From contig JACPKG010000022.1 in assembly GCA_016187175.1 (NCBI GenBank), positions 11,989 through 75,988 on the forward strand: 64,000 nucleotides of DNA, read 5' to 3'. Under the pieces are notes generated by a model. The model searched no databases. It saw only the letters and a list, made by a program, of their open reading frames with translations, and was not told the origin of the DNA. This DNA is from Candidatus Saccharimonadota bacterium. GTDB lineage: Bacteria; Patescibacteriota; Saccharimonadia; Saccharimonadales; UBA10212. Positions 428 through 63,594 of the stretch are shown one piece after another (position 1 is the first letter of the stretch; every line of letters begins with the position of its first letter). Position numbers and translations under genes: made by a program.

Positions 428-433
428 TACAAT
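428..433 (+). promoter_or_regulatory. -10 box TACAAT, 6 nt before the ATG of 440..1264 (leaderless-type)
   Basis: gcTATACAATgtcattATG; there is no room for a Shine-Dalgarno. Confidence 0.45.
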
Positions 434-439
434 GTCATT

Positions 440-1264
440 ATGCGCGTTCTTGATAAAAAAAGACTCCGAGCCATAACCCCAAAACGCTTATTGACATTAA
501 CAGTCATTTTAGTATTAATTGGGTTTATTTGGTGGATATTAGATGGTTGGTCGAAAAACAATTCGTCGCCGGACACTGATAGCCAATCAACTAGTTCGGC
601 TCAAACAAAATTGCCTAACTTGGTTCCTTTTAACAAACAGCAAAGATCGGTTAATGACCCAGGCAGCCTGTGGGTAGTGGTTAATAAGGGCAGAATTTTG
701 CCAATTGATTTTGCTCCATCGCAGGTATTGCCCAATGTATCCCTGCATTATGATGCTTCTGCCAATGATTCCCATCTTCAACCAGACGCGGCTCAGGCAT
801 TGGAGACTATGACCTCAGTCGCTAAAAAAGACGGTATTTTACTGAAGCTTTTTAGCGGCTACCGCTCCTACTCCCAACAACGTTCGGTTTACAGCAATTT
901 TGTGGCTAGCCAGGGACAAGCCTATGCCGATGTTACCAGTGCCCGACCGGGCCATAGCGAACATCAGACAGGCTTAGCGGCTGACGTAGCGGCAACATCA
1001 GGCGAGTGCGATATCGAAATATGTTTTGGCGATATGGCCGAAGGTAAGTGGGTGGCGGCGAATTCATACAAATATGGCTTCATTTTGCGCTATCCCAAGG
1101 ACAAACAAAACCTGACTGGCTATGAGTACGAACCATGGCACCTGCGGTTTGTTGGCATAGATCTGGCTAGCCAGCTGTATAAGACTGGTGAAACGCTTGA
1201 ACAATTCTTCAACCTACCAACCTACGCTGACTACCCGGCCCAACCGTATAAATTAAAGTTATAG
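440..1264 (+). CDS. D-alanyl-D-alanine carboxypeptidase, peptidase M15B (VanY-like) with N-terminal membrane anchor
   Basis: VanY/M15B motifs SGYRSY, SEHQTGLAADV and EPWHLRFVG; hydrophobic helix near the N-terminus. Confidence 0.85.
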   Translation: MRVLDKKRLRAITPKRLLTLTVILVLIGFIWWILDGWSKNNSSPDTDSQSTSSAQTKLPNLVPFNKQQRSVNDPGSLWVVVNKGRILPIDFAPSQVLPNVSLHYDASANDSHLQPDAAQALETMTSVAKKDGILLKLFSGYRSYSQQRSVYSNFVASQGQAYADVTSARPGHSEHQTGLAADVAATSGECDIEICFGDMAEGKWVAANSYKYGFILRYPKDKQNLTGYEYEPWHLRFVGIDLASQLYKTGETLEQFFNLPTYADYPAQPYKLKL

Positions 1265-1283
1265 GGTGAGAGGTATAGGCAAG

Positions 1284-2192
1284 TTAATCCTTAGGATTAA
1301 CTTCGTGGCCGCCAAACTTATTACGCATTGCTGATAATAGTTTTGTAGAAAAGTTCGTCTGGCCTTTTTGACTAGCTAAACGCACATCAAAAGAAGTTTG
1401 AATTGCAGGCAGTGGTATACCCAACTCTCTAGCTGTCTCTAGCGTCCAGCGGGTTTCACCACTTTCGGAAACTATACCATCAATACCCGTAAGACTGGAG
1501 TTTTCGGTTAGGACTTGGCGAGTGAGTTCATTGAGCCAGCTATTTATGACGCTGCCGTGTTGCCAGACCCCGCCAGCGGCGGCTAAATCGATATTCTGAT
1601 AAGGACCTTCCCTCAACATACGGTATCCCTCAGCCAACGACTCCATCATGCCGTACTCAATCGCGTTATGTACCATTTTTACATAATGACCTGCACCGTT
1701 TGGACCAAAATATTGATATGCTCCTGATGGTTTTGACAACGTTTTAAGTGCTGGTTCGATTGTTTGATAGGCTGATTTATCGCCGCCGACCATCATAGAA
1801 AAGCCGTTTTGATATCCCCACACTCCACCGCTAGTACCGACGTCAACTAATACGCAACCGTGGTCGGTAGCTTGTTCCGCTCGCTTCATAGTTAATCTAA
1901 AGTCTGAGTTTCCGCCGTCAATCAATATGCTGCCCGTCGGGACTATAGCTAGCCATTCGTTGAGCTGATCATCAACTACATCAGCTGGGAGCATGAACCA
2001 AAGTACCAATTGCTCGCCCGAAAATAGCTGCAGTACGTCTTGTTTCGCATATGCAGGTTTAGTCCCGTAAGCCATGACTTTGTCTATGGGTTCACGGCTT
2101 CGGTTATGGACAACCACTGCGTGTCTGCCCTCTGCCAGTTTGCGGGCGATTTGTACCCCCATACGGCCCAGGCCAGCAATTGCTATTTTCAC
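1284..2192 (-). CDS. gnd: 6-phosphogluconate dehydrogenase (decarboxylating), short Gnd/YqeC type
   Basis: N-terminal Rossmann motif AGLGRMG and 6PGDH-like sequence throughout; 4-nt overlap with the upstream pgl. Confidence 0.8.
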   Translation of the reverse strand: MKIAIAGLGRMGVQIARKLAEGRHAVVVHNRSREPIDKVMAYGTKPAYAKQDVLQLFSGEQLVLWFMLPADVVDDQLNEWLAIVPTGSILIDGGNSDFRLTMKRAEQATDHGCVLVDVGTSGGVWGYQNGFSMMVGGDKSAYQTIEPALKTLSKPSGAYQYFGPNGAGHYVKMVHNAIEYGMMESLAEGYRMLREGPYQNIDLAAAGGVWQHGSVINSWLNELTRQVLTENSSLTGIDGIVSESGETRWTLETARELGIPLPAIQTSFDVRLASQKGQTNFSTKLLSAMRNKFGGHEVNPKD

Positions 2193-2860
2193 ACTGGGTC
2201 ACCTCGCCGATCGTTATAGATAGTTAGTTTGCCGACTGCCTTTAAGCACTGAGCCGGTAGAACACTGACTGGTAAATGCTTGGCTAATCGGTCAAGCATC
2301 GGCCACTTGGCCTCGCCTAGAGCATATGACACTACTTCGTCAAGGCGGGCTATAGCTCGTGGTGTCAATGTCAAGCGGATAAAATCATCACTTTGGTACC
2401 CAACCGCTAGTTTAGCAGAATTCACAGCCGGGCTGTGAGGCTTGATGCCGCCAGCATGGCCGTCAGGGCCTATCCCAATGAAGCCTAGCTTAAAATCTGC
2501 TTGCGACAAAGCGTCTTCAACAATTGTGCAGTAATCTGATGCAGTTTGCTCTAAGTCCTTGCCTGATAGCACAGGATACAGCTTAGCGCCGGGCAGATTA
2601 AATCCAGCGTCTAGTAATTGCTGCCAATTAGAGTCCGGATGTCCGATCGGGCCATAACGCTCATCTGATAGGGTAACAATTAAATTTCTAAGGTTAGCTC
2701 GGTTGAGCTTTGAAGCAACTTCGACTGCCAGCGGGATAGAAGAACCGCCAGTCACTAGCCATAGAACTCTTTTATCTTTAGCCAGGTGCCTATCCAATGT
2801 GATCGCCAAGTGGGCAACGACAGGTTCAATAGATGAAATCTTGCAAAAATTTATCCCCAT
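2189..2860 (-). CDS. pgl: 6-phosphogluconolactonase (GlcN6P-isomerase/6PGL family)
   Basis: Family motifs GGSS and GIGPDGHAGG; operon partner of gnd. Confidence 0.75.
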   Translation of the reverse strand: MGINFCKISSIEPVVAHLAITLDRHLAKDKRVLWLVTGGSSIPLAVEVASKLNRANLRNLIVTLSDERYGPIGHPDSNWQQLLDAGFNLPGAKLYPVLSGKDLEQTASDYCTIVEDALSQADFKLGFIGIGPDGHAGGIKPHSPAVNSAKLAVGYQSDDFIRLTLTPRAIARLDEVVSYALGEAKWPMLDRLAKHLPVSVLPAQCLKAVGKLTIYNDRRGDPV

Positions 2861-2867
2861 AAAGGGA

Positions 2868-2873
2868 ATTATA
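2868..2873 (-). promoter_or_regulatory. -10 box TATAAT, 7 nt before the ATG of pgl (leaderless-type)
   Basis: Minus sense reads TATAATtccctttATG. Confidence 0.5.
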
Positions 2874-3467: not shown

Positions 3468-3549
3468 TTATTTAGTGCTGGACAGGCAAAACCCGTGACT
3501 TATTGTAACAGTTTAACGTCCACAGTTTTACAGACTAGACTAAACACCT

Positions 3550-3555
3550 TATAAT
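3550..3555 (+). promoter_or_regulatory. -10 box TATAAT, 14 nt before the ATG of 3570..4502
   Basis: ccTTATAATctgagctagagtttATG; implies a very short 5' UTR without an SD. Confidence 0.4.
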
Positions 3556-3569
3556 CTGAGCTAGAGTTT

Positions 3570-4502
3570 ATGTCGAAAACCGCCAAAAATGCGGCAGAGT
3601 ATATCCTGCCTCTTTATATGAATGGTCTTTCTGGCCGCATGCTACGCTTGCCGCCCAAGAAAAATAAACAGCGGGAGATGTTGCTAGTGTACGGGCACCA
3701 TACAAGTATAGAACGGATGATAGGCATGGCCGAGTACCTGAACCGCTACGGCGGTGTAACTATGCCGGATTTACCCGGTTTTGGCGGCATGGAAGCGTTT
3801 TATAAAATTGGCGAAAAACCGACACTGGACAACTTAGCGGATTATTTGGCTGCTTTTATCAAACTGCGCTATCGAAACAGGCGTATAACTATTGCTGGAT
3901 TTAGCCTGGGCTTCCCTATAGTGACCCGCATGCTGCAAAAATACCCCGAACTAGTTAATAAGGTCGATATGCTTGTAAGTATCGTTGGGTTTGTGCACAA
4001 AGACAATTTTGTTTTTAGCAAACAACGCTACTTGTTTTATCGATTGGGCTCCAAATTTTTTTCGTATAGATTACCAGCAACTTTTTATAAACATCTTATT
4101 TTAAGGCCGATATTCATTCGCTACATTTATCGTCACCTATTTAATGCTAAGCAGAAGTTCGAAGGCAAAAAGGCCCAAGAACTCCAAGAAGCTATTGATA
4201 TGGAGATCTATCTTTGGCGCTGCAATGACCCAAGAACCTATATGTCTACGGGCCATATAATGTTTACGCTTAACTTGTTAGGTTCGCATGTCGATCTGCC
4301 CGTCTATCATGTGGCCGTAAGCAACGACCGCTATTTTAATAATCTGAGGGTAGAACAACACATGCGAACCATATTCAAAGACTTTTATTTAATTAAAACT
4401 AGGATGCCAAGCCATATGCCATCTGTGATTGCAACTGCTTATCAGGCAGGTTCGTTTGTTCCGGAAGCCATGCGTCGGATGCTGCGGAAAGATCCAAAAT
4501 AA
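3570..4502 (+). CDS. alpha/beta-fold hydrolase
   Basis: Nucleophile elbow GFSLG after an HG-type oxyanion region (VYGHH); length and pattern typical of the alpha/beta hydrolase fold. Confidence 0.7.
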   Translation: MSKTAKNAAEYILPLYMNGLSGRMLRLPPKKNKQREMLLVYGHHTSIERMIGMAEYLNRYGGVTMPDLPGFGGMEAFYKIGEKPTLDNLADYLAAFIKLRYRNRRITIAGFSLGFPIVTRMLQKYPELVNKVDMLVSIVGFVHKDNFVFSKQRYLFYRLGSKFFSYRLPATFYKHLILRPIFIRYIYRHLFNAKQKFEGKKAQELQEAIDMEIYLWRCNDPRTYMSTGHIMFTLNLLGSHVDLPVYHVAVSNDRYFNNLRVEQHMRTIFKDFYLIKTRMPSHMPSVIATAYQAGSFVPEAMRRMLRKDPK

Positions 4503-4504: not shown

Positions 4505-4510
4505 TATAAT
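4505..4510 (+). promoter_or_regulatory. -10 box TATAAT, 12 nt before the ATG of 4523..5779
   Basis: cCTATAATgcaactaacgagATG. Confidence 0.4.
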
Positions 4511-4522
4511 GCAACTAACGAG

Positions 4523-5779
4523 ATGAAAATAGGATTAGTTTGTCCGTACAACATGTTCGACCGGCCGGGCGGTGTGCCACAGGTGGTTATGCATCTGCAC
4601 GAGGGCTTAAAGAAAAGGGGTCATAGCGTAAAAGTTATTACCCAAAGACCGTCTAGTTTTAAGGGAGAAGTACCAGAAGACTATCTCCTCTTTGGCGTCA
4701 GCCGAACATTTAAGGGTGGTTTTGGTACTGAAGGCAACTGGGGTATGCCGTCAGATAGTGAAGAAATTGCCAAGGTGCTACAACAAGAACAATTCGATGT
4801 TATTAATTTCCACGAACCCTGGATGCCTATGCTGGCATGGCAAATGGTTAAACATTCTCAAGCTGCCCATATAGGTACGTTTCACGCTAACCTGATTGAT
4901 ACTGTCGCTGGTAAATCTTGGACAAGCACCATTTTTAAACCTTATGGCCGCCCCCTGCTTAGAAAGATGGATATTTTTACCGCTACCTCTCCTGCTTCCT
5001 CAGCTATGTTAATTAGTCGAGCTAACATGCATTCACCAATAGAGAGAGAATTGATTGAAAGTCTGCAATATATACCCTGCGGTGTAGATTTAAAAGTATT
5101 TAAGCCACTCAAAAAAAGACAGGCTTTAAGTGGACCAAACACTAAAACCATAGTCTATGTAGGCAGGCTTGAAAAACGCAAAGGGGTTGATTTCTTACTT
5201 TCAGCTTTTGCCGAGCTTCTTAAAACAATGCCGGAGACTCATTTAATTATTGCTGGATCGGGCTTGAGGGCCAATAAACTGAAAAAGCTCGCCGAGACTG
5301 AAAGCATTAAAAACGTCTACTTTCCAGGATACGTAACCGATGAGGAAAAACGACGCTTACTGGCTAACGCTGACTTGGCTTGCTTTCCCTCTACCTACGG
5401 AGAAGGCTTTGGAATTGTACTGCTAGAGGCCATGGCGATGGGTACACCATTGCTGGCTGGTAACAATCTTGGTTATATCAATGTCATGAAAGGTCATGGC
5501 CGAATTGGTCTGGTTGATCCCCAGGCCACTACTGATTTTGCCAATCGTATGGCTGTTTTTCTGTCCGACAATGAGTTACGAAAACTAATAACGGTCTGGG
5601 CCTTAAGTGAGGTGAAAAAATATGACTACCCGAAGATCATCAATCAATACGAGGATGTCTACAAAAAAGCTGTTCTTAAATGGCGTAAGAAACGGCACCT
5701 GAATGGAGAAAATGCCAGGAATGAGAAAAAATTCTGGAAAATTAAGCGTCGCTTTTTGTTACGACGACAGCCTAGATAA
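4523..5779 (+). CDS. glycosyltransferase family 4 (GT-B)
   Basis: C-terminal GT4 signature EGFGIVLLEAMAMGTP and GRLEKRKG. Confidence 0.85.
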   Translation: MKIGLVCPYNMFDRPGGVPQVVMHLHEGLKKRGHSVKVITQRPSSFKGEVPEDYLLFGVSRTFKGGFGTEGNWGMPSDSEEIAKVLQQEQFDVINFHEPWMPMLAWQMVKHSQAAHIGTFHANLIDTVAGKSWTSTIFKPYGRPLLRKMDIFTATSPASSAMLISRANMHSPIERELIESLQYIPCGVDLKVFKPLKKRQALSGPNTKTIVYVGRLEKRKGVDFLLSAFAELLKTMPETHLIIAGSGLRANKLKKLAETESIKNVYFPGYVTDEEKRRLLANADLACFPSTYGEGFGIVLLEAMAMGTPLLAGNNLGYINVMKGHGRIGLVDPQATTDFANRMAVFLSDNELRKLITVWALSEVKKYDYPKIINQYEDVYKKAVLKWRKKRHLNGENARNEKKFWKIKRRFLLRRQPR

Positions 5780-6866
5780 ATATGATGGGGTAGCCCAGTA
5801 CGTTAAGATTTTGGGTCAGTGGCTGAACTCTAATGGCCACAAGGTCGTGTATTTTGTAGGCGAAACTAAAATGCGTGAATGGGTTGGCGATCCAGTTTTT
5901 AGCATGTCTAAAAATAAAGAAGTTGTTTTTAACAGAAACTACGTTACTATCCCCTTGCCTGCCAGCAAGGAGTATATCAACAGAGTGCTAGCCAAGCACA
6001 ATATAGATATTCTACACGTTCAGATGCCTTACTCTCCATTTATGACTGGCAGGATTATCAACCGCATTAAACCGCAAACAGCAGTAGTCGGCACTTTTCA
6101 TATTTACCCGGCTGGTTTTCTAGCTAGCTTCGGTACCCGACTATTACGACAACTTTGCCGACGATCATTACGGCGTTTTTCGACCGTTCTAGCGGTCAGT
6201 CCTGCGGCCGCGGACTTTGCCAAAAAGACCTTTGGTATCGATGCGGCTGTCTCGTCCAATGTAGTTGAACTGGCAAGATTTAAAACGGTAGACGTCAAAC
6301 CGCAAAAGAATCACATAGTTTTTCTGGGCCGGCTCGTTAAGCGCAAGGGTTGCAGAGAACTACTGATGGCCTTTCGCCTTTTAAGGCTCCGTGTACCTGG
6401 CGTCAGGTTAACTATTGCCGGCGATGGTCCTCAGCGGCGTCGATTAGAGAAGTTAGTCAAACGATACAAGTTAGGCGAGTCAGTAAAGTTCACCGGATTT
6501 GTTAGCGAGAAGGATAAGCCAGACTTGTTGGCGACAGCCGACATTGCTTGCTTTCCATCACTGGGTGGTGAGAGCTTTGGCGTAGTCTTGGTTGAAGCCA
6601 TGGCCGCCGGCGCCGGTGTGGTAGTTGGCGGCAATAACCCCGGATATGCAACAGTGCTGTCGGGGCGGCCAAAAACCTTAGTTGATCAACGTAACATATC
6701 TAATCTGGCGCGGCAGCTAGAGTTATTTCTAACTGACCGAAAGCTTACCCAAGACGTACACGCCTGGCAGCAGAAACTTGTTCAACGATACGATGTAGAT
6801 TTGGTCGGTAAGCAAGTCGTTGAAGTTTACCGCCACGCGCGATTGCTAAAGCTGCAAGAAAGATAG
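5703..6866 (+). CDS. glycosyltransferase family 4 (GT-B); start uncertain (5703, 5712 or 5721)
   Basis: GT4 signature ESFGVVLVEAMAAG and GRLVKRKG; overlaps the 3' end of the upstream GT4 gene. Confidence 0.8.
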   Translation: MEKMPGMRKNSGKLSVAFCYDDSLDKYDGVAQYVKILGQWLNSNGHKVVYFVGETKMREWVGDPVFSMSKNKEVVFNRNYVTIPLPASKEYINRVLAKHNIDILHVQMPYSPFMTGRIINRIKPQTAVVGTFHIYPAGFLASFGTRLLRQLCRRSLRRFSTVLAVSPAAADFAKKTFGIDAAVSSNVVELARFKTVDVKPQKNHIVFLGRLVKRKGCRELLMAFRLLRLRVPGVRLTIAGDGPQRRRLEKLVKRYKLGESVKFTGFVSEKDKPDLLATADIACFPSLGGESFGVVLVEAMAAGAGVVVGGNNPGYATVLSGRPKTLVDQRNISNLARQLELFLTDRKLTQDVHAWQQKLVQRYDVDLVGKQVVEVYRHARLLKLQER

Positions 6867-6871
6867 ATAAT
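6866..6871 (+). promoter_or_regulatory. -10 box GATAAT, 7 nt before the ATG of 6879..7976 (leaderless-type)
   Basis: taGATAATtaagcccATG; overlaps the stop codon of the upstream gene. Confidence 0.4.
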
Positions 6872-6878
6872 TAAGCCC

Positions 6879-7976
6879 ATGGAGTCTGGCCAAAAAGTTA
6901 CGGTTAGTGTTGCCAACCGAACAATTGTCCGAGCAATCTTGTGGGTTGTAGCAGCTATACTTATTTATCGGTTTATCGGACAAATCTCTCATGTACTGAC
7001 TCTTATTCTGGCGGCCATATTCTTAGCTTTGGCGCTTAATCCGGTTGTTGCCTGGATTCGTCGTCGCCTGCACATTGACAGCCGCATCAGAGCTACCGCT
7101 GTGGCTTATTTATTGGTTGTAGTATTTTTGAGCGCTTTCGTGGCCCTGATAGTTCCGCCATTAGTCCGCCAGACCAGAGATTTTATTAAGGACGTTCCGA
7201 CAACTGTTGAGAACTTTCAAAAACAGAATTCCTCGCTGGCAGCAGCAGCCAAACGTTACAACCTAGACGAGAAGCTAAGTCAAGCGGCTAAGGATTTTAC
7301 ATCTAACTACGGCAACTTTGGCACTACTTTGCTGGATACTGGACGAAGGGTAGCTGAAGCAGTGATTTCATTCTTCGTGGTCTTGGTTTTGACATTTATG
7401 ATGCTTGTCGAGGGGCCGCGGTGGCTAACTTGGTATTTGGAAACACTACCCGAAAAACAGCGTAGCCGTCACAAAAAAGTATTGAATAGAATATATAAAG
7501 CCGTCAGCGGCTTCGTGAATGGACAAGTCATATTAGCGGCCGTGGCTGGTTTTTTTGCATTTATTGCTCTAGAAATCGCCAGCCAAATTCTAGATGTTAG
7601 CGTCAATGCTGTGGCTCTAGCCGGCATTGTGGCAGTATTTGGCATTATTCCACTTTTCGGTAATCCTATCGCTGCCGCAGTGGTAGTACTTGTTAGTTTG
7701 CTCAGCTCTGTCAGTTTAGGCATTACTATGGCTATATATTTTACGATTTACTTTTTTATCGAAAACCATACTTTTCAACCCTATATACAGGCCCGGCTCA
7801 ATGAGTTGTCGCCACTGCTGGTACTTATTTCGGCTTTAGTAGGCGTGGGCTTTGGTGGCATACTTGGGGCAATAATTGCCATCCCAGCCGCTAGTACAGT
7901 CAAGATTATATTAGAGGATCAGTTACTGCAGCGCGGTATTAACACTAGCCGTAGCACCCGTAGCGCGTCAGGCTAA
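6879..7976 (+). CDS. AI-2E family transporter (PerM/YhhT-like permease)
   Basis: Multi-pass membrane protein with the typical AI-2E C-terminal region GGILGAIIAIPAA. Confidence 0.8.
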   Translation: MESGQKVTVSVANRTIVRAILWVVAAILIYRFIGQISHVLTLILAAIFLALALNPVVAWIRRRLHIDSRIRATAVAYLLVVVFLSAFVALIVPPLVRQTRDFIKDVPTTVENFQKQNSSLAAAAKRYNLDEKLSQAAKDFTSNYGNFGTTLLDTGRRVAEAVISFFVVLVLTFMMLVEGPRWLTWYLETLPEKQRSRHKKVLNRIYKAVSGFVNGQVILAAVAGFFAFIALEIASQILDVSVNAVALAGIVAVFGIIPLFGNPIAAAVVVLVSLLSSVSLGITMAIYFTIYFFIENHTFQPYIQARLNELSPLLVLISALVGVGFGGILGAIIAIPAASTVKIILEDQLLQRGINTSRSTRSASG

Positions 7977-11379: not shown

Positions 11380-12561
11380 TTATTTTAGCACGTAGGTAAC
11401 CCGAGTTTCTTTAGTGTTAGGCCAAGCCGACAGACTATACCTGAGTCCATAAAAAATATGCAGTCCAACTACACCAAGCAGCAACACTAGCGCTAAGTAT
11501 TTGGGTATAGGATTCTTGGGAAATACGCTGCGCCATTCCATATACAAATAGCGTAACCCGGCGGCAACTAAAACTGCGGTTGCCGGTAAGGCCAGCGTCA
11601 AAAGTACTGGGTTTTTGTTTATGCCAGCGCCGATTACAGATACTATTATCAGCCCCATTAGTATGTACAACTTATTTCTAGCTAGTCTATAAAGTGCAAA
11701 GCCTCCGAAGAAAGCTAGAATTATCTGTACGTAATCTAAAATCGGTAAGCGGCCTATCAGAATGTCGATATGGGCAGGCGTCCGCCAAATCAGGCTAAGT
11801 GTACTCCAGGCGATAGATTTAATAGTCTCTGTTACCTGTGGCCATGCGTCCGGTAAAAAGAACAAGGGTTTAAGTAATGATGGACTTTTGGCGCTGCCAT
11901 ATATTAAGGGAGCCAGTAAGATTAACCCTAAAACAGTAGCTAACGATTTGCGGCCTTTACTTAAATGAGAGGCGGCTTTAGCTATATTGCTTTTAGCGGC
12001 CACTGCGCCTATCACAACTAGCCAGACCATACCGGGAACGTAAAGGCTAAGAGCGCTGGCAGCCACTAGCCCGATGAGGGATAGGCTACTCTTAGATTTA
12101 GTTAGCCAATAGTAACAGGCTAAAATGACGGCTGGAGCAAGTAATAGAATGTCCGCCGAGGCGTTTCTGGAAAGAAGGACAACCCACGGTGTGGCGCCAA
12201 GGATTAAAGTAGCCAAAAAACCTATCTGTCGCCCAAACCAGCCCTTTACCAAAACATAAAAACAGAACAATATACCGATGGCAAAAACCGACGACACGAT
12301 TCTTAAATTTGCAGCCGTGGGGCTAGCAGCCTTTTGGGTAGCGTACTGGACAATTTTATGGGGAGCATAGACAGGGTTGTCGATAATTGATTGCAGGGAT
12401 GAAGATGCCATTCTGGCCGAAACTTCTGCCGGACTTAAACCCTTAGTTAGATTACCGATATGCCAAAAGTAAAGAGGGAAAATAATAAGGCTGAAGAAAA
12501 CTATCGCCAACAAAGTTTTGACCGGTTGGAACTTCCTGCCATAGAGCAACCTTGTCAACAT
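11380..12561 (-). CDS. polytopic membrane protein, possibly a GT-C (ArnT/PMT-like) glycosyltransferase
   Basis: About 10 predicted TM helices; the family assignment is only by general resemblance. Confidence 0.5.
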   Translation of the reverse strand: MLTRLLYGRKFQPVKTLLAIVFFSLIIFPLYFWHIGNLTKGLSPAEVSARMASSSLQSIIDNPVYAPHKIVQYATQKAASPTAANLRIVSSVFAIGILFCFYVLVKGWFGRQIGFLATLILGATPWVVLLSRNASADILLLAPAVILACYYWLTKSKSSLSLIGLVAASALSLYVPGMVWLVVIGAVAAKSNIAKAASHLSKGRKSLATVLGLILLAPLIYGSAKSPSLLKPLFFLPDAWPQVTETIKSIAWSTLSLIWRTPAHIDILIGRLPILDYVQIILAFFGGFALYRLARNKLYILMGLIIVSVIGAGINKNPVLLTLALPATAVLVAAGLRYLYMEWRSVFPKNPIPKYLALVLLLGVVGLHIFYGLRYSLSAWPNTKETRVTYVLK

Positions 12562-12568
12562 GAATATA

Positions 12569-12574
12569 AGTATA
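12569..12574 (-). promoter_or_regulatory. -10 box TATACT, 7 nt before ATG 12561 (leaderless-type)
   Basis: Minus sense reads TATACTtatattcATG. Confidence 0.4.
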
Positions 12575-12613: not shown

Positions 12614-13978
12614 CTAGGTGTCGAAGGGTTGATCGTGTTTAGTGTCCAAATCATGGAACCTTTGACGAGTCCGGTCAAAATACAACTCAACCTTTCCTAC
12701 CGGGCCGTTACGATGTTTTTTAATGAACACATCGGTGATATTTTGTCGATCGGTTTCAGGATTATAGTAATCCTCGCGGTACAAGAACATAACCACATCG
12801 GCATCTTGCTCAATAGAGCCGGACTCACGCAGATCAGCTAACTGTGGTATCTGAGGTGAGCGGTTTTCGACCGAGCGGCTAAGCTGCGAAAGAGCGACCA
12901 CAGGCACATTTAACTCACGAGCTAAAATTTTTAGACTACGGCTAATTTCGGAAATTTCTTGGACGCGGTTGGCTACTGTTGCAAACCGAGAACCACCGCT
13001 CATTAGTTGTAAATAATCGACCATGATGACTGCTAGTGGTGAGCTATGATGTAGCCGGCGGGCCTTTGTCCTAAGGTCGCTAACGGTAATGCCGGAAGTG
13101 TCGTCTATAAAAATTGGCGCCTCGGCTAGTTCGCCCATGGCCGCGCTGATACGTTCGAAATCGTTATCGCTCAGCCCCTCACCGGTTCTAAGGCTCCAAG
13201 CATCTACGCCGGCTTCGGCTGCTAGTAACCGGTCCACCAATTGCTCCTTGCTCATCTCCAGACTAAAAATCAACACAGCCCCCTGCTTGGCTTTAATGGC
13301 GATGTCAAGTGCGATATTAAGCATCAGAGCGGTCTTACCCATAGACGTACGGGCAGCGATAATATCGAGGTCGGATCGCTGCAAACCAGCCAGCATTTTA
13401 TCCAAATCCTTGAGGCCCGTCGGTATACCCCTAATGCCGCCCTTGCGTCGGTGAAGCTCGTCTAGCCGGTCAAAACTTTCGCCAAGTATAGACTCTAAAC
13501 TGGTTATGTCCTGTCTGACATGTTGTTCGCTAACCTCAAAAAGACGAGTTTCAGCCTCCTCTATTAACGCCTGAAGCGATTTATTTTCCTCAGACCCAAT
13601 GGCTGCTATATCCTGGGAGGCTTTTATGAGACGTCGGCGAATAGACTTGTCGGCCACAATCTCCGCATATTGTTCGAGATGGGCCGCAGTTGGCACAAAA
13701 TTAGTCAGTTCGGTTAAGTAACTGGCTCCGCCAATCTGATCCAGCTCACCCCTGCTTTTTAGCTGTTCGCTAAGTGTTAGAATGTCTATTGGACTACGCT
13801 TGTCGTGTAATGCACGCATAGCTGTGAATATAATTTTGTGCTGTTCGTTATAAAAGTCGTCAGGTTTTATCAAATCGGCGATTTTAACAAATGCATCACT
13901 ATCAATCATCAAACTGCCAAGCAAGGATGCCTCAGCGTCTAGGCTTTGAGGTGGACTAGTAGCTATGGGGGAGTCCAT
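12614..13978 (-). CDS. dnaB: replicative DNA helicase DnaB
   Basis: DnaB N- and C-domains; Walker A ARTSMGKT; typical C-terminus. Confidence 0.95.
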   Translation of the reverse strand: MDSPIATSPPQSLDAEASLLGSLMIDSDAFVKIADLIKPDDFYNEQHKIIFTAMRALHDKRSPIDILTLSEQLKSRGELDQIGGASYLTELTNFVPTAAHLEQYAEIVADKSIRRRLIKASQDIAAIGSEENKSLQALIEEAETRLFEVSEQHVRQDITSLESILGESFDRLDELHRRKGGIRGIPTGLKDLDKMLAGLQRSDLDIIAARTSMGKTALMLNIALDIAIKAKQGAVLIFSLEMSKEQLVDRLLAAEAGVDAWSLRTGEGLSDNDFERISAAMGELAEAPIFIDDTSGITVSDLRTKARRLHHSSPLAVIMVDYLQLMSGGSRFATVANRVQEISEISRSLKILARELNVPVVALSQLSRSVENRSPQIPQLADLRESGSIEQDADVVMFLYREDYYNPETDRQNITDVFIKKHRNGPVGKVELYFDRTRQRFHDLDTKHDQPFDT

Positions 13979-13979
13979 T

Positions 13980-15323
13980 TTACGATTCTACCAATTCGGC
14001 CTTACCGAATATATTACTAATAGTTGTTAACTGCGCAGGTTCCTTGGGCAAAACACCCAGCGTGCATTTAATCTCGACTTTTGCGCCGCTCAACTCTTCT
14101 ATGACCTCACCGATTAACTTAATGTTGTGCGATCCACTGACCTTATTCTTGTGTAGAGGAAACTGAAACGTCAACTTCAGTACATTGCCATCAACTTCAG
14201 GCTCGGCCAGGCGAAGAGCTGTATAAAGCGCTGCGGCGCGGCCTTTTATAACAGCAACTACCTGAGGCCATAGATCCAGGTTAAAACCTGACCTAGCTGG
14301 ACCCTTTGCCTCATCGGTACTGACTTCATCACCAAACTTTTCATTTAGTGGCTTAGCTTTTGACTGACTATTGCCGATAGCGGTCTCTATAAGGGCTATT
14401 TCTAGGACTTCATATGGTTGTTTGGCAGCACTTATATCCAATAATTTTCTAAGCAAATCTGCCATCCAATTGGCTGATTGGCTGCTGTCAATAATCATTT
14501 TCCGCAGGTTCTTAGACAGTTGCGAAGCTACCTCGACGGCGTTAGTGCCTTGCTGACGCAAGTTATCAAGCAGTGATACTATGACTCTCGGATCTCCCTG
14601 GCTAACACTCTTAAATAGTTGCTGGATGATATTTACAGCCGGCAGGCCTAACAGTTCACGAGCGGACTGCTCGGTGATTATTCTACTCTTACCACCAAGT
14701 TGGTCTAGCATACCGATACTGTCTCTCAGACTGCCATCAGCGTGTTCGGCCAGAAGTTCCAGGACAGCTGATTCAATTTCAATAGCCTCTTTTTGGGCTA
14801 TATTTTTAAGGTGAGCGATGGCCTGGCTTTTTTCGGTTGGCTTAAAGTTAAAGCGCTGCGTGCGGCTGATGATAGTTTCGGGCAATTTATGGACTTCGGT
14901 AGTAGCTAAAATGAAGATGCAGTGGTCCGGTGGTTCCTCTAGGGTTTTTAAAAGAGCATTAAAGGCCTCCCGGGTCAGCATATGGACTTCATCTATAATA
15001 TAGACTTTGTATTTAGCAGAAGTCGGAGCGATGTGTACGCGTTCGCGAAGATCCCGTATTTCATCAATTCTTCGGTTGCTGGCAGCATCAATTTCAATAA
15101 TATCTAAATGGACAGACTCGTCCTTGTAGGCCAAGTTATTAACTGCGTGGGCTAAGATTCTGGCGACACTGGTTTTACCCACGCCACGCGGTCCGCTAAA
15201 TAGATAAGCATGGCTAATACGTCCACTTCTGATGGCTTTTTGCAAAGTCTGGGTTATTGGTTCCTGACCAACTACCTCACTAAATGACCTCGAACGATAC
15301 TTTCTGTATAAAGCCTGACCCAC
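13980..15323 (-). CDS. dnaX: DNA polymerase III subunit gamma/tau
   Basis: AAA+ clamp-loader motifs GPRGVGKT, DEVHML and SRTQ; GTG start. Confidence 0.9.
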   Translation of the reverse strand: MGQALYRKYRSRSFSEVVGQEPITQTLQKAIRSGRISHAYLFSGPRGVGKTSVARILAHAVNNLAYKDESVHLDIIEIDAASNRRIDEIRDLRERVHIAPTSAKYKVYIIDEVHMLTREAFNALLKTLEEPPDHCIFILATTEVHKLPETIISRTQRFNFKPTEKSQAIAHLKNIAQKEAIEIESAVLELLAEHADGSLRDSIGMLDQLGGKSRIITEQSARELLGLPAVNIIQQLFKSVSQGDPRVIVSLLDNLRQQGTNAVEVASQLSKNLRKMIIDSSQSANWMADLLRKLLDISAAKQPYEVLEIALIETAIGNSQSKAKPLNEKFGDEVSTDEAKGPARSGFNLDLWPQVVAVIKGRAAALYTALRLAEPEVDGNVLKLTFQFPLHKNKVSGSHNIKLIGEVIEELSGAKVEIKCTLGVLPKEPAQLTTISNIFGKAELVES

Positions 15324-15327
15324 GTAC

Positions 15328-15376
15328 TAGATTATAGACGTTTGATGCTTGAGTTTCGAGTGTATAAATTACAAAG
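15328..15376 (-). repeat. 49-bp promoter cassette, copy 1 (upstream of dnaX)
   Basis: 46/49 identical to 19904..19952. It contains TATAAT (15331..15336) 7 nt before the dnaX GTG and overlaps the last 2 codons and stop of orf170. Confidence 0.8.
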
Positions 15377-19186: not shown

Positions 19187-19899
19187 TAACCTGCCTTGTG
19201 GTCTTTTAGACCCTCAATTCTTATTGGAGCCAATCGTGTATCTTTATAGGCTCTTGGAAGCATTTGCTCGGGACGCCAATGGCGTACTAGCTTACTCAAG
19301 TCCGTGCTTGCGCTGGGCTGGTACTTACCGCTTAATTTTTTATACTCGCCCTCTACAGGTCCAGTTTCATAAAAGACCATCTGGGCAATCCGCTCACCGA
19401 CTGGCAAAACAACGCTTTCATGCTGGTTCATATTGTAGATTTCTAGTGTCCAGCGATTAATATAGCCTGGATCGCCCCAACCAGCATCTATGCATACGGC
19501 TACGCCGTTTCTTCCCCACGTACTACGGGCTTGCAAAGTACTTGTACCAGGCGCTTTAATACCGATAAATTCGTGGGTATGACCCAGAAGTCGCTCGCCT
19601 GGCCTGACAACAATAATTGGTTGGTTAGGGGGTATACCTTCAAAAAGTTGCCGACCGTTAGCTTTCGACCAATACTTATGAATTTCGGCCTTGTACGGGC
19701 CGTCAAAATAACGTGCTACATCGTTCCTGTCGAAGGGATTGTAAAAACCACTGACGCCTGTTCGCTCTGTACGGTAATACCAATTGCCCAAAGTAACATC
19801 CAGGCTGCTGCCGGCTATATTAGCTTTAATAAATGGATGACAAACGATATGTCCTTCCTTGACAGCTTTTCGTATCTGGACGTTACTATAAACAGACAT
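19186..19899 (-). CDS. dcd: dCTP deaminase / dUTPase-superfamily protein
   Basis: dCTP-deaminase-like N-terminus and beta-barrel core; its stop overlaps the tmk start by 1 nt. Confidence 0.8.
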   Translation of the reverse strand: MSVYSNVQIRKAVKEGHIVCHPFIKANIAGSSLDVTLGNWYYRTERTGVSGFYNPFDRNDVARYFDGPYKAEIHKYWSKANGRQLFEGIPPNQPIIVVRPGERLLGHTHEFIGIKAPGTSTLQARSTWGRNGVAVCIDAGWGDPGYINRWTLEIYNMNQHESVVLPVGERIAQMVFYETGPVEGEYKKLSGKYQPSASTDLSKLVRHWRPEQMLPRAYKDTRLAPIRIEGLKDHKAG

Positions 19900-19903
19900 T
19901 AAT

Positions 19904-19952
19904 TAGATTATAGACGTTCGATGCTCGAGCTTCGAGTGTATAAATTACAAAG
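19904..19952 (-). repeat. 49-bp promoter cassette, copy 2 (upstream of dcd)
   Basis: 46/49 identical to 15328..15376; TATAAT at 19907..19912 lies 7 nt before the dcd ATG. Confidence 0.8.
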
Positions 19953-23328: not shown

Positions 23329-23988
23329 TTAGGTGATCGAAATGTTACGACGGCTAAAATCTACGCGGCCGGCCTGCGGATTAGGGATCAGATTTATAAG
23401 ACCGGGTTTGATTATATTGCTTTGAACCATTTCGCTGGTTATTATACCTATTTGGTAAAGCCGGTTTACTATAGCGTTTTTTTGCGTTACAAAGGCATGT
23501 TTACCGCTAATCACTATGTAGTTCTCGTCTTTTGGATTTTGCATATCAGCTAGCTGTTGGTTAAAGGTTGAGCGCGTCTGGGGTTGTGCGTACTTGTCGT
23601 CAAAAGTACGCCTGTCGCGGCGCTGGGTGCGCATGTAAGCACTTTCTATGTCTATTTGCAGCCAGACTAGCAGGTAGACTGCCTTATGGTTAGTGGCCAG
23701 GCCACGCAGACGCTGCCGTTGGTTGATCCGCATAGCATTGGCGTCGTAAACTACGCTTACGCCAGCGCTTAGGAATTCTTCAGTCATATAATTCATCAAG
23801 TGTGTAATGATAGCGTTTTCTTGGGCGTCATAGCGGGGCTTGGCAAACAATTCATTGCGAATGCGATCTGCACTAACGTGCGCCGTCTGAATGTCTTGCG
23901 TCAAATTGCGGGCAAGAAAACTCTTGCCAGAACCTGGAAAACCATAAAGACAGATTAAAATGGGCTTGTTAAGCACGATTTTAGCCAT
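23329..23988 (-). CDS. P-loop kinase-like ATPase (AAA_33 / zeta-toxin / PNK-like fold)
   Basis: Walker A GFPGSGKSF at the N-terminus and DA (Walker B-like) at VVYDAN; no further specificity visible. Confidence 0.65.
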   Translation of the reverse strand: MAKIVLNKPILICLYGFPGSGKSFLARNLTQDIQTAHVSADRIRNELFAKPRYDAQENAIITHLMNYMTEEFLSAGVSVVYDANAMRINQRQRLRGLATNHKAVYLLVWLQIDIESAYMRTQRRDRRTFDDKYAQPQTRSTFNQQLADMQNPKDENYIVISGKHAFVTQKNAIVNRLYQIGIITSEMVQSNIIKPGLINLIPNPQAGRVDFSRRNISIT

Positions 23989-23995
23989 CTATCTG

Positions 23996-24001
23996 ATACT
24001 A
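23996..24001 (-). promoter_or_regulatory. -10 box TAGTAT, 7 nt before ATG 23988 (leaderless-type)
   Basis: Minus sense reads TAGTATcagatagATG. Confidence 0.4.
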
Positions 24002-24117
24002 TCACCTCTGATGGACTTCATAAAGTGATTGCGCTTATTGGTCCCTTGACGTCGCTTAGGACATGCCTCTCGGCCGTAGGCCATGAGCGAGGCTTAATTT
24101 GTTCGAGCCGAGTCGAA

Positions 24118-24244: not shown

Positions 24245-24448
24245 TTAGCGGCGGGTCGGGACGATGTTGCGGCCGAGGTTCTTGTTGGTCTCTGATTGCT
24301 TAGCTATGGTACGTTTGACCGGGCAGTACTTTTTAAGTTCAACTTTATCAGGCACGTTCATAATATTTTTGGTTGTGTAATAGTGGCGGGCGCCACAGGC
24401 GTCGCAAACCAAGCCAATAATTTTGCGCTTCTCGCTTTTCTTAGCCAC
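24245..24448 (-). CDS. rpmG: 50S ribosomal protein bL33 (C-terminally extended, 67 aa)
   Basis: bL33 pattern KIIGLVCDACGARHYYTTKN...KKYCP; GTG start. Confidence 0.88.
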   Translation of the reverse strand: MAKKSEKRKIIGLVCDACGARHYYTTKNIMNVPDKVELKKYCPVKRTIAKQSETNKNLGRNIVPTRR

Positions 24449-24455
24449 TTATCTT

Positions 24456-24461
24456 ACTCTA
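24456..24461 (-). promoter_or_regulatory. -10 box TAGAGT, 7 nt before the GTG of rpmG (leaderless-type)
   Basis: Minus sense reads TAGAGTaagataaGTG. Confidence 0.35.
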
Positions 24462-25711: not shown

Positions 25712-25719
25712 TTAGGCCC

Positions 25720-25725
25720 ACTATA
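25720..25725 (-). promoter_or_regulatory. -10 box TATAGT, 8 nt before ATG 25711 (leaderless-type)
   Basis: Minus sense reads TATAGTgggcctaaATG. Confidence 0.4.
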
Positions 25726-25736
25726 TCATATGCTCG

Positions 25737-26330: not shown

Positions 26331-26605
26331 AGACTATTGAGATGATCTAAGGCTTCTTCTAATGAATTAGTTCTAGTAATGTTTTTGCCTGTTTTTAGGT
26401 CAGCTTCAACTTCTCTCATAATCTTTTCAAGATATGGGGTAGGTTCCAGCTCAGTGCTCAGTACAACTTTACGATCCCTAAGCATTTGTTTAATCTGGGC
26501 GTTCATAATGACACTAACGGGCACTCCCAGCTCAGCAGCAAATTCCTGAATCTGTTGCTTGGTTTGGGGGTCGGTCCTAATATTTAGTATTATGGTTTTA
26601 GTCAT
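26327..26605 (-). CDS. type II antitoxin, RelB/DinJ-like (ribbon-helix-helix)
   Basis: 92 aa; the N-terminal beta-strand/helix pattern ILNIRTDPQTKQQIQEFAAELGV resembles DinJ/RelB; it lies upstream of and overlaps the toxin. Confidence 0.72.
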   Translation of the reverse strand: MTKTIILNIRTDPQTKQQIQEFAAELGVPVSVIMNAQIKQMLRDRKVVLSTELEPTPYLEKIMREVEADLKTGKNITRTNSLEEALDHLNSL

Positions 26606-26611
26606 ACACCC

Positions 26612-26640
26612 ATTGTACTACCGTTGTATATACGTGTCAA
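26612..26640 (-). promoter_or_regulatory. promoter of the TA operon: TTGACA-17-TACAAT, 6 nt before the ATG; GTATATAC palindrome in the spacer
   Basis: Minus sense reads TTGACAcgtatatacaacggtagTACAATgggtgtATG. The palindrome is a plausible antitoxin operator. Confidence 0.6.
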
Positions 26641-61558: not shown

Positions 61559-62161
61559 CTATCTATGCTGGATGACTTTGTCGACCAAACCATATTTTTT
61601 GGCCTCTTCGGCAGTCATCCAATAATCACGGTCCACATCTTTTTCTATCCTACTGACTGGTTGGCCAGTGTTTTTAGCTAGAATTTCATTTAACAGTCTC
61701 TTGACCCTTATACCCTCCCGCAAGTCAATCTCCAGATCAGTTATTTTGGCCCGCTCAGCCGCCGCGCTGGGCTGGTGGATCATAACTGTAGCGTGCGGCA
61801 AAAGCAGCCGCTTGCCTTTGGTACCGGAGCTTAATAAAAAGGCGGCAGCACTGGCATTCACGCCAATGCCAACTGTTTGAACGTCGCACTTTACGTACTG
61901 CATGGTGTCGTAAATGGCAAAGGCGTTATAAACACTGCCACCTGGACTATTGATGTAAAAGATGATGTCTTTATCTGGATCCTGGTTTTCCAAGAAAAGC
62001 ATCTGAGCGACAACAATATTGGCTGTATGCTCGTTTACTTCATCGCCTAAAAAGATTACCCTGTCCTTTAGCAGACGACTGTAGATGTCATAAGCCCGCT
62101 CGTACCTACCTTCTTGCTCGATAACGGTAGGCACCAGAATCTGGCTAGTTGGTTTAATCAT
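61559..62161 (-). CDS. clpP: ATP-dependent Clp protease proteolytic subunit
   Basis: Canonical ClpP (catalytic Ser in GxSxA-like context, His and Asp present). The start was trimmed to MIKPTSQ (62161), because the track GTG (62191) would lie inside the promoter/terminator. Confidence 0.93.
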
Positions 62162-62170
62162 ATAAGCTTG

Positions 62171-62198
62171 ATTATAATCAAAAATTAGCACTCGTCAA
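62171..62198 (-). promoter_or_regulatory. clpP promoter TTGACG-16-TATAAT, 9 nt before the ATG
   Basis: Minus sense reads TTGACGagtgctaatttttgatTATAATcaagcttatATG. Confidence 0.55.
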
Positions 62199-62211
62199 CC
62201 CAGAGTGCTAA
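62179..62211 (-). terminator. intrinsic terminator of tig
   Basis: Minus sense reads TTAGCACTC-n9-GAGTGCTAA followed by TTTTTG. It overlaps the clpP promoter. Confidence 0.6.
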
Positions 62212-62269
62212 TTTGTTGGCTCAATTTCTTCAGTAGGTATATCTACATCTCGACGGTAGACTTCAAATT

Positions 62270-63580
62270 TCAAGATTTTTGGGCAAACTCAACCAATCTG
62301 GCGACGGTTTTTTCGGTCATCAGGCGGGCAGCAATCTCGCGTTGGTTTTCTGGCTTATCCAGCTCGGCCTGCATTTGCGGATCTTGATATTGCCCTTTCA
62401 ATATCTGGATTCGGATTTCTAGCTCTTCTGGAGTCACAAAAATATTTTCCCGCTCGGCAATTTCGCTAAGCACTAATCCAGCTTTGACGCGTTGCTGCGC
62501 CTCCGGACGTTGCCTCTCAAAATGTCCTTCTGCCGTTATGCCTTCGGCATCCAGATGTTCTTGCCAAGTCTGACCGCGATACGCAAGATCGCGCTTTTCG
62601 TCCTCTTCGCCTCGGGCAATCTGCTCGTCAACCAAACTTTTGGGTACTTCTACCTCTGTTTTTTCGGAGATTTGTATAATTAGTTCGTTTTCGTATTCGC
62701 GGTCGGCTGGCATTTGTTTTTCGGCTTTCAGCTGCTTCTTGATATCAGCCTCTAGATCGGCCATTGTTTTAAACAGCCCAACTTTAGCAGCGAAGGCATC
62801 ATCTAATTTTGGCCTAGTAACTTCATTGACTTTTTTGACGCCAACTGTAAAGGTGACCTCCTTATTCCGAAGACCGACAGCGCCATAATCGTTTGGAAAA
62901 GTAATCGTGAAGTCATATTTACCACCAGCTTTGGTGCCTATTAGATTTTCTTCAAAGCCTGGAATAAACTTGCCGCTGCTACGTACCGTCTGGTGCGTGG
63001 CGCCGCCAAGCATGAGTGGATAGTCCTTGCCATCTGCTCCGGCAATTGGATCGCCCATTTTATCCTTACCTTCAAAGTCAATTACTACTTCATCGCCATC
63101 TTTAGCGGCTCGCTCAACTGCTTTGCGATCAGCTAGGCGCAGCCGCAAAGACTCGATCACACTGCTTATTTCTTCGGCCCTAATTTCAACCGGTTTTTTG
63201 ACCAATTTAATTTTTTTATAATCAGGTAGTTTGATCGGGCCAATAATTTCTAATTCTGCTTCGAATTCCAGATCTGTGAATGGTACAAACTTTTTTAGAT
63301 GAACTTCCGGCCGGCTGGCTGGCCGTAGTTTTTCTTGGTCAATTGCCCGCCCATATAGACTATTGAGAGCATGTTCGATAAACTCATCAGCCAGCGCTCT
63401 TTGATCAACGTGTTTTTCGATCAGCGCCACCGGCGCCGTACCAACGCGGAAGCCCGGCACTTTGACTTTGCTAGCAAAGTGTTTCAGCACATGGTCTTTG
63501 ATTGGCGTCAAATCAAACTGGTCAGCCGTAATAAGCAATTTCAGTCGCGTCGCGGATTCTTCGGTTTTCGAAATTCGCAT
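62270..63580 (-). CDS. tig: trigger factor
   Basis: Ribosome-binding N-domain with a GFRxGxxP-type motif (PGFRVGTAP), an FKBP-like middle domain and a C-terminal domain. Confidence 0.93.
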   Translation of the reverse strand: MRISKTEESATRLKLLITADQFDLTPIKDHVLKHFASKVKVPGFRVGTAPVALIEKHVDQRALADEFIEHALNSLYGRAIDQEKLRPASRPEVHLKKFVPFTDLEFEAELEIIGPIKLPDYKKIKLVKKPVEIRAEEISSVIESLRLRLADRKAVERAAKDGDEVVIDFEGKDKMGDPIAGADGKDYPLMLGGATHQTVRSSGKFIPGFEENLIGTKAGGKYDFTITFPNDYGAVGLRNKEVTFTVGVKKVNEVTRPKLDDAFAAKVGLFKTMADLEADIKKQLKAEKQMPADREYENELIIQISEKTEVEVPKSLVDEQIARGEEDEKRDLAYRGQTWQEHLDAEGITAEGHFERQRPEAQQRVKAGLVLSEIAERENIFVTPEELEIRIQILKGQYQDPQMQAELDKPENQREIAARLMTEKTVARLVEFAQKS

Positions 63581-63588
63581 ACCGCCAG

Positions 63589-63594
63589 ATTATA
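63589..63594 (-). promoter_or_regulatory. -10 box TATAAT, 8 nt before the ATG of tig (leaderless-type)
   Basis: Minus sense reads TATAATctggcggtATG. Confidence 0.5.

Follow-up and report, generated by a model that had tools for sequence, protein, structure and literature searches.

Where does a messenger RNA begin when its promoter stands directly against the start codon? The question is raised by a 64,000-nt stretch of a genome of Candidatus Saccharibacteria (TM7; Patescibacteria, or Candidate Phyla Radiation, CPR), here called the window, in which hexamers resembling the bacterial -10 promoter element repeatedly end only a few nucleotides before a gene. The window has a GC content of 44-49% and carries bacterial core genes, namely a large ribosomal-protein cluster, rpoB, rpoC, tuf, fusA, secE and nusG, and further encodes rplK, rplA, rplJ, rplL, dnaX, dnaB, trpS, cysS, tig, clpP and five tRNAs. 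At about 14 genes, most of them non-ribosomal and with housekeeping roles, a -10 hexamer ends 6-9 nt before the start codon, and at three more it ends 12-15 nt away. These start-adjacent promoters most likely yield leaderless or near-leaderless mRNAs, in a two-mode layout with genes that are led by Shine-Dalgarno (SD) sequences.

For the statistics, genes were taken as the longest open reading frames (ORFs) of at least 80 aa, called mechanically (n = 69 in the window). A near-consensus -10 was defined as TATAAT with at most one mismatch, a loose match as TAnnnT, and the spacer as the number of nucleotides between hexamer and start codon. At spacers of 6-8 nt, a near-consensus -10 precedes 11 of the 69 window genes, as compared to 0.9 ± 0.9 in dinucleotide shuffles (maximum of 4 in 300). 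The loose rule, which the earlier note on this DNA had used, finds 14 of 69 genes as compared to 4.9 ± 2.0 in shuffles; its strict core is thus upheld, whereas about five loose matches per 69 genes are expected by chance, which leaves its weakest sites, TAGAGT before rpmG and GATAAT before the gene of an AI-2E transporter, individually doubtful. Counted from the motif instead of from the gene, the window has 37 TATAAT hexamers on both strands, and 7 of them are followed, after 7-9 nt, by an ATG or GTG with an ORF of 80 codons or more.

The count was also extended to related loci and again gave enrichment at start-adjacent spacers. A TrpS search of one-genome-per-species contigs returned 80 loci, the best at 70% identity, and all that were labelled belong to Candidatus Saccharibacteria, Saccharimonadales or Nanosynbacter; the sole contig match for the window's own TrpS was one 1.3-kb Logan contig. 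The first set of relatives, 43 Saccharibacteria loci free of redundancy, spans 678 kb and 762 genes; 92 of the 762 genes have a near-consensus -10 at a spacer of 6-10 nt, with about 18 expected. A second set, anchored on DnaB and drawn from metagenome contigs (78 loci, 1.03 Mb once overlaps were removed), replicates the enrichment, with 21 of 97 genes in the closer relatives. In the distant members of this set, whose DnaB is 47-57% identical, TGnTAnnnT occurs 20, 7, 7, 7 and 6 times at spacers of 6, 7, 8, 9 and 10 nt over a background of about 2.5; our claims are confined to Saccharibacteria. The sampled loci range roughly from 36 to 57% GC. Pooled with the window, the 121 non-redundant related loci give 210 of 1836 genes (11%) with a near-consensus -10 at a spacer of 6-10 nt.

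One could ask if such a pattern is an accident of composition, produced by a loose motif in moderately AT-rich DNA, by the TA of stop codons and by wrongly called starts. The rate of loose chance matches speaks for this, as does the AI-2E hexamer, which overlaps a stop codon, and a generic sigma-70 consensus scan of window positions 1-20000 found no excess (34 sites vs 31.9 in shuffles). That scan is uninformative, however, since it demands a -35 element, which is largely absent from the start-adjacent promoters. Against an accident stand the strict-motif excess given above, flat counts for reverse-complement and permuted hexamers, and replication in two independent locus sets. In 150 kb of E. 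coli K-12 (135 genes), passed through an identical pipeline as a negative control, 0, 0 and 0 genes have the motif at spacers of 6, 7 and 8 nt and the SD peak is normal; a Deinococcus radiodurans MP1 plasmid, meant as a positive control, gave no usable signal, with only 42 ORF-called genes in high-GC DNA. The Pfam domains of the chosen ORFs, moreover, begin at residues 1-20. We give almost no credence to a compositional artefact as a general account: it is largely refuted for the ensemble, which is real and beyond chance, and is possible for the weak sites of rpmG and AI-2E.

The identity of the hexamers was read from positions that had not been used to select them. Across 103 aligned start-proximal hexamers, T at -17 (64%), T at -15 (62%) and G at -14 (73%) spell out the TnTGn of an extended -10 promoter, and no -35 enrichment was detected among them. 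In the pooled loci, TG is found before 33-50% of hexamers at spacers of 6-10 nt and before 0-19% at spacers of 0-5 nt and of 12 nt or more. The same class of hexamer is preceded by TG in 50% of cases when start-proximal vs 11% at spacers of 15-40 nt. Strong motifs that combine TGn with a TATAAT-like hexamer, sought from -200 to +60 of gene starts, fall at spacers of 5-11 nt in 52 of 128 cases, a density of 7.4 per nt vs about 0.3 per nt elsewhere, gene interiors included. Recognisable extended -10 promoters in the sampled genomes overwhelmingly adjoin start codons. The earlier note had taken the start-adjacent hexamers to act as -10 elements; the TnTGn signature, the exclusion of SD motifs, the ATG bias, the orthologues and the replication together strongly support their being sigma-70-type extended -10 promoter elements.

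The SD motif and this hexamer avoid each other. Of the 103 -10-proximal genes, only 6 also carry an SD-like motif (odds ratio 0.07, p = 5e-18). Their start codons are 94% ATG, 5% GTG and 1% TTG, as compared to 76%, 12% and 12% for all genes, a bias in keeping with transcripts that start on a purine and have the AUG at their 5' end. True internal cistrons, taken as genes overlapping the one upstream, are -10-proximal in 4 of 171 cases, which is background. The earlier note's statement that ribosomal-protein and internal genes use SD sites is borne out: SD-like motifs peak at a spacer of 5-12 nt in the related loci, and in the window AAGGAG(G) lies upstream of rplL, rplK, nusG, secE, rpsM, tuf, fusA and rpsG. 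SD-led, leadered units of the translation apparatus in the window are rplJ (with an Rfam L10 leader), rplK, nusG, secE, tuf, rpsL, rpsG and rpoB.

The TATAAT-like hexamer could also be a translation signal rather than a promoter, that is, an AU-rich enhancer or a "group B" motif of the Bacteroidetes type that acts without SD pairing on a leadered mRNA. Its AT-rich character and its position at ribosome-binding-site distance would suit such a role, as would the missing -35 enrichment. Yet TnTGn is specific to sigma-70 extended -10 promoters and is confined to spacers of 6-10 nt, and good -35 elements lie 16-17 nt from the -10 of the antitoxin, clpP, hydrolase and infA genes of the window and of rpmG orthologues. 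In addition, group B motifs precede all genes (PMC6028130), whereas the hexamer is at background in overlapping internal genes, and canonical AAGGAGG is used elsewhere in the genome. A translation signal is therefore very improbable.

Taken as promoters, these elements would often belong to the extended -10 class (TnTGnTAnnnT), for which a -35 element should be largely dispensable, and RNA polymerase would usually start about 7 nt past the -10. Transcription starts centred 7 bp after the -10 have been reported (PMC12641261). With spacers of 6-9 nt, the first transcribed base would then be the A or G of the start codon or lie 1-3 nt upstream of it. Such transcripts would leave no space for an SD sequence, and none is present; for translation, ribosomes would presumably bind the 5'-terminal AUG directly. 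In ribosomal-protein operons and at most internal cistrons, canonical AAGGAGG would be used instead, on leadered or polycistronic transcripts. This two-mode layout appears across Saccharibacteria, with spacers of 6-10 nt, and orthologues seem to change mode through short indels in the stretch from the -10 to the ATG. Both the position of transcription start and leaderless translation are inferred here from sequence.

The sites in the window, with hexamer positions in brackets, are as follows.

428..442 (+): VanY; TACAAT (428-433), 6-nt spacer, ATG at 440; no SD motif, Pfam support, upstream gap of 18 nt.
2858..2873 (-): pgl, 6-phosphogluconolactonase-like; TATAAT (2868-2873), 7-nt spacer, ATG at 2860; Pfam support, upstream gap of 223 nt.
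3527..3572 (+): alpha/beta hydrolase; TTTACA-17-TATAAT (3550-3555), 14-nt spacer, ATG at 3570; 11/12 consensus match.
4505..4525 (+): GT4 glycosyltransferase; TATAAT (4505-4510), 12-nt spacer, ATG at 4523; the orthologue in locus L087 also has TATAAT with a 12-nt spacer.
6866..6881 (+): AI-2E transporter; TTGCTA-17-GATAAT (6866-6871), 7-nt spacer, ATG at 6879; Pfam support.
12559..12574 (-): PMT_2-like membrane protein; TATACT (12569-12574), 7-nt spacer, ATG at 12561; the orthologue in locus L088 has TGaTATACT, 7 nt, ATG.
13976..13993 (-): dnaB; TGgTAGAAT (13985-13990), 6-nt spacer, ATG at 13978.
15321..15376 (-): dnaX; TATAAT (15331-15336), 7-nt spacer, GTG at 15323; lies within a 49-nt repeat common to the dcd promoter.
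19897..19952 (-): dcd; TATAAT (19907-19912), 7-nt spacer, ATG at 19899; second copy of the 49-nt repeat.
23986..24004 (-): AAA_33 kinase; TGaTAGTAT (23996-24001), 7-nt spacer, ATG at 23988; Pfam support.
24446..24461 (-): rpmG (L33); TAGAGT (24456-24461), 7-nt spacer, GTG at 24448; weak hexamer.
25709..25728 (-): DHH/DHHA1 phosphoesterase; TGaTATAGT (25720-25725), 8-nt spacer, ATG at 25711; Pfam support.
26603..26640 (-): antitoxin of a YafQ/ParE-type toxin-antitoxin pair; TTGACA-17-TACAAT (26612-26617), 6-nt spacer, ATG at 26605; Pfam support (toxin).
30726..30742 (-): trpS; TATAAT (30737-30742), 8-nt spacer, ATG at 30728; the hexamer lies within a 16-nt intergenic gap.
35822..35871 (-): infA; TTTACA-17-TGtTAAGAT (35840-35845), 15-nt spacer, ATG at 35824; short leader predicted.
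62159..62198 (-): clpP; TTGACG-16-TATAAT (62171-62176), 9-nt spacer, ATG at 62161; Pfam support.
63578..63594 (-): tig, trigger factor; TATAAT (63589-63594), 8-nt spacer, ATG at 63580; Trigger_N from residue 1, gap of 21 nt.

The earlier note had listed twelve of these hexamers, and all 12 lie where it placed them, with the spacers it gave; none of the 12 starts has an SD-like motif within 20 nt upstream, as it had also claimed. The spacers for clpP (9 nt), GT4 (12 nt) and the hydrolase (14 nt), which it had described as near-leaderless, are likewise correct, and its list omitted the sites of dnaB and infA. Pfam supports the gene identities at the listed sites. Domains begin at residue 1 in Tig (Trigger_N), 4 in the dCTP deaminase, 6 in TrpS, 9 in L33 and 9 in DnaB, and the alignments of the remaining listed proteins begin at residues 11-20. 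No alternative start codon was found near the listed starts, and the next in-frame candidates lie far downstream. The domain positions and these distances leave the listed start codons well constrained. Matches to the -35 consensus are 6/6 for the antitoxin (TTGACA), 5/6 for clpP (TTGACG) and 5/6 for the hydrolase and infA (TTTACA). Leaderless mRNAs are usually defined by a 5' untranslated region (UTR) of at most 5 nt; GT4, the hydrolase and infA, at 12-15 nt, would have SD-free leaders of about 5-8 nt, with about 7 nt expected for the hydrolase.

Orthologues in related genomes retain the arrangement at several of these genes. TATAAT or TATACT lies 6-11 nt before the conserved ATG of trpS in 36 of 42 non-redundant loci, and the intervening bases vary. 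In dnaX orthologues the hexamer at 6-10 nt reads TATAAT, TACAAT or TATACT, and the DHH orthologue in locus L001 has TGgTATAGT, 8 nt, ATG. Many rpmG orthologues carry TTTACA-17-TGTTAnAAT 9-10 nt before the ATG, whereas other lineages are leadered with AAAGG; in the window itself, where TAGAGT is weak, a better match, TGaTAGTAT, lies about 41 nt upstream. The kinase promoter CAGAGGTGATAGTATCAG is common to the window and L001, where a 14-nt insertion carrying GGAAGG turns the 7-nt spacer into a 21-nt SD leader; the start-adjacent arrangement of this gene is evolutionarily labile. The dnaB gene is start-adjacent in the window and in L091 and leadered in L086, L089 and L090.

Several results weigh against leaderless expression. 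The full TGn is present at only 4 of the 17 window sites, and the rpmG and AI-2E hexamers may be chance matches: GATAAT overlaps the stop codon of the preceding gene and does not begin with T. Conservation of the dnaB -10 was discounted as promoter support, because the motif sits within the last, conserved C-terminal codons of dnaX and is confounded by dnaX coding, so that it gives no independent evidence. At spacers of about 10 nt, relatives can have GGAG between the -10 and the ATG, as in 14 of the 42 trpS loci and, among the pooled loci, in 10-18% of genes at spacers of 9-10 nt. This blurs the leaderless reading of those relatives, which may be dual-mode or have very short leaders; the window's own sites at 6-9 nt have no SD motif, unlike these GGAG-bearing relatives. 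Furthermore, SD-like sites outnumber -10-proximal ones overall and among first cistrons counted automatically (93 vs 44). Finally, at several sites the gap to the same-strand neighbour is very short, so that read-through transcripts surely exist too.

For trpS, an SD-like GGAG directly follows the -10 in L058, L059, L043, L068, L064, L072 and L075 (at about position 9980-10000 of each locus). One composite example reads TATAATAAGGAGGAAT-ATG, with promoter and SD sequence overlapping.

The short gaps raise the question of whether longer read-through transcripts are the main source of the proteins, with leaderless transcripts, from real or partly real promoters, contributing little. Ribosomes would then initiate through coupling or re-initiation, or would bind an unstructured AU-rich region without the help of an SD sequence. 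The same-strand gaps before VanY (18 nt), AI-2E (12 nt), trpS (16 nt), tig (21 nt) and dnaB (1 nt, after dnaX) have no room for a terminator, other internal window genes (rplA, a YgjP-like gene, recR and the toxin gene) are also without an SD motif, and the GGAG that can follow the -10 in relatives whose spacer is about 10 nt points the same way. The identical arrangement, however, is found behind large or divergent upstream regions at pgl, dcd, the kinase, DHH, the antitoxin and clpP, and the overlapping genes, which are the clearest coupled cistrons, are not enriched (4 of 171). A strict spacing of 6-10 nt with 94% ATG is predicted by leaderless initiation and not by coupling. We therefore consider it unlikely that read-through supplies most of the protein, and favour leaderless or near-leaderless initiation from the start-adjacent promoters.

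How common is this mode among first cistrons? The earlier note had called all twelve of its genes operon-leading; several of them were so called solely because of the hexamer, and the upstream gaps of AI-2E, trpS, VanY and tig are short (12, 16, 18 and 21 nt). By hand, about 9 of 13 non-ribosomal window genes with a divergent upstream neighbour or a gap of 45 nt or more have a start-adjacent -10 (pgl, the membrane protein, dnaX, dcd, the kinase, DHH, the antitoxin, clpP and the hydrolase), and five more start-adjacent sites lie in short gaps (VanY, AI-2E, trpS, tig and dnaB). Automatic counts of genes behind a divergent neighbour or a gap of at least 60 nt were as follows.

Window: 5 -10-proximal, 15 SD-like, 15 neither.
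43 related loci: 44 -10-proximal, 93 SD-like, 179 neither.

The -10-proximal counts are lower bounds owing to the strict motif and the crude longest-ORF start calls, and the sampled loci are biased toward the ribosomal-protein region. Even so, dominance of the leaderless mode among first cistrons, as the earlier note had it, is not shown by the counts; SD-led initiation is commoner overall.

The closest known counterparts are the leaderless-rich genomes of GeneMarkS-2 group C, in which 6-8 nt separate the Pribnow box from the gene start, as shown for predicted leaderless operons of M. tuberculosis (PMC6028130). Group C accounts for 90% of Actinobacteria and 97% of Deinococcus-Thermus and is rare in Proteobacteria and Firmicutes (PMC6028130). 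As in group C, the window's -10 lies at 6-8 nt, SD motifs are absent there and kept elsewhere, and the ATG or GTG is predicted to be 5'-terminal. Unlike the high-GC Actinobacteria and Deinococcus of that group, Saccharibacteria have reduced genomes of about 1 Mb, with the sampled loci at roughly 36-57% GC; their promoters have a strong TnTGn and no detectable -35 enrichment, the spacers reach 10 nt in relatives, and the strict motif marks about 11% of genes. The promoters themselves resemble the extended -10 (TGn/TRTGn) sigma-70 promoters of Gram-positives and E. coli in their TnTGnTAtaaT and dispensable -35, but in Firmicutes and E. coli these normally stand before an SD-carrying leader, whereas the Saccharibacteria promoter directly adjoins the start codon. 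Archaeal leaderless transcripts (GeneMarkS-2 group D) offer a similar division between first cistrons without SD, where loss of the 5' UTR would apply here as well, and SD-led internal cistrons, although in archaea the promoter box stands about 26 nt ahead of the gene start and serves another transcription machinery (PMC6028130). Group B of the Bacteroidetes type differs in that the start-adjacent motif of Saccharibacteria does not precede all genes (4 of 171 overlapping ones) and canonical SD motifs are abundant.

Our literature search, outside whose reach lay many subscription papers and supplementary tables, found no paper tying leaderless mRNAs to Saccharibacteria, Patescibacteria or the CPR. 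The NCBI annotation pipeline uses GeneMarkS-2 internally, and we cannot exclude earlier implicit knowledge of leaderless genes in Saccharibacteria. A study of CPR ribosomes found the anti-SD motif to be less often detected only in a Parcubacteria subgroup (48%) (PMC9297842), and a promoter study drew on 188 N. lyticus transcription starts, obtained from RNA-seq, with no comment on leaders (PMC12641261). Saccharibacteria have become genetically tractable only recently, via tuf and rpsJ promoter cassettes (PMC10633639).

The result extends a known mechanism to a new lineage and is no new principle. A broader reading, in which leaderless initiation from start-fused extended -10 promoters is a phylum-wide strategy of Saccharibacteria for most non-ribosomal units, and possibly of the wider Patescibacteria/CPR, is tentative and somewhat short of an even chance. 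If it is true, genes switch readily between leaderless and SD-led modes by small insertions and deletions, as the kinase, dnaB and rpmG orthologues would illustrate, promoter and AUG form a single compact module suiting extreme genome reduction, and the arrangement echoes the leaderless-rich Actinobacteria that host Saccharibacteria epibionts. Start calling in CPR metagenome-assembled genomes is mostly SD-trained and would have to include a model for leaderless genes, and N-termini may have been annotated wrongly. Compact promoter-plus-ATG modules would also serve directly as parts for genetic design in Saccharibacteria. Leaderless mRNAs are often regarded as an ancestral mode of initiation, and to find them commonly in a deep-branching lineage whose genomes are reduced and whose ribosomes are small would be an evolutionary data point. 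The system is testable, as the cultivated strains TM7x and Southlakia exist.

Several other features of the window deserve mention. The 49-nt repeat, at 15328-15376 and 19904-19952 on the minus strand, is 94% identical between copies (3 transitions) and makes up the entire dnaX and dcd promoter regions. Its sequence runs CTTTGTAATTTATACACTCGAA..CGTCTATAATCTA, with a TGTA-N5-TACA palindrome near the -35 position, and the dcd copy has the near-palindrome CGAAGCTCGAGCATCG between -35 and -10. The repeat was not seen upstream of dnaX in close relatives. Genes of replication and nucleotide metabolism may share it as an operator; an NrdR box was considered and rejected by eye, as the half-site orientation misfits the NrdR consensus. 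Directly downstream of dcd, a 629-aa ORF (17297-19186, minus strand) has a thymidylate kinase domain at residues 7-168 and a weak ThyX (Thy1) match at 451-569, and may encode a fused dTMP-pathway protein.

A further element of about 85 nt occurs at 53308-53389 and 61470-61553 on the minus strand, upstream of the rpsL-rpsG region and of rpoB, with 88-96% identity and a partial copy at 31179-31204. Its long inverted arms, GAGGTCCGACCTTG ... CAAGGTCGGACCTC, could form a large hairpin (a terminator, attenuator or processing site), or it could be a small repeat element. A box, AGCGACTGGAAGGAGCG, that contains the SD sequence and is conserved well past the SD core precedes six ribosomal-protein or nusG genes on the minus strand (at about 21390, 22084, 40227, 41615, 43353 and 53250). 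Several intergenic spacers within the ribosomal-protein operons are made of odd short word repeats such as catgaaacatgaaacaagaaacatgaaac, gtaacaagtaacaaacaataagtaacaag and tagctaatagctatgagctaatagctaggagctaa, at about 34230-34297, 44153-44265, 45436-45521, 52494-52530 and 53860-53900.

Among the ribosomal proteins, S10 (47633-48157, minus strand) has 174 aa, with the S10 domain only at residues 79-173. The 78-aa N-terminal extension is basic and of low complexity, the single alternative start is a GTG at codon 58, and the ATG is preceded by neither an SD motif nor a -10. The rplC-rpsJ interval of about 790 nt contains only a doubtful 75-aa ORF. Protein uL1 (19986-20957, minus strand) has 323 aa, about 90 aa above the usual length, and its ATG lies 2 nt after rplK without an SD motif; an N-terminal extension of uL1 has been reported for Saccharibacteria (PMC9297842) and fits the window's protein. 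Two mechanically called ORFs are probably spurious: 25841-26098 on the minus strand overlaps tRNA-Thr and tRNA-Tyr on the plus strand, and 3084-3386 on the minus strand begins directly after tRNA-Gln.

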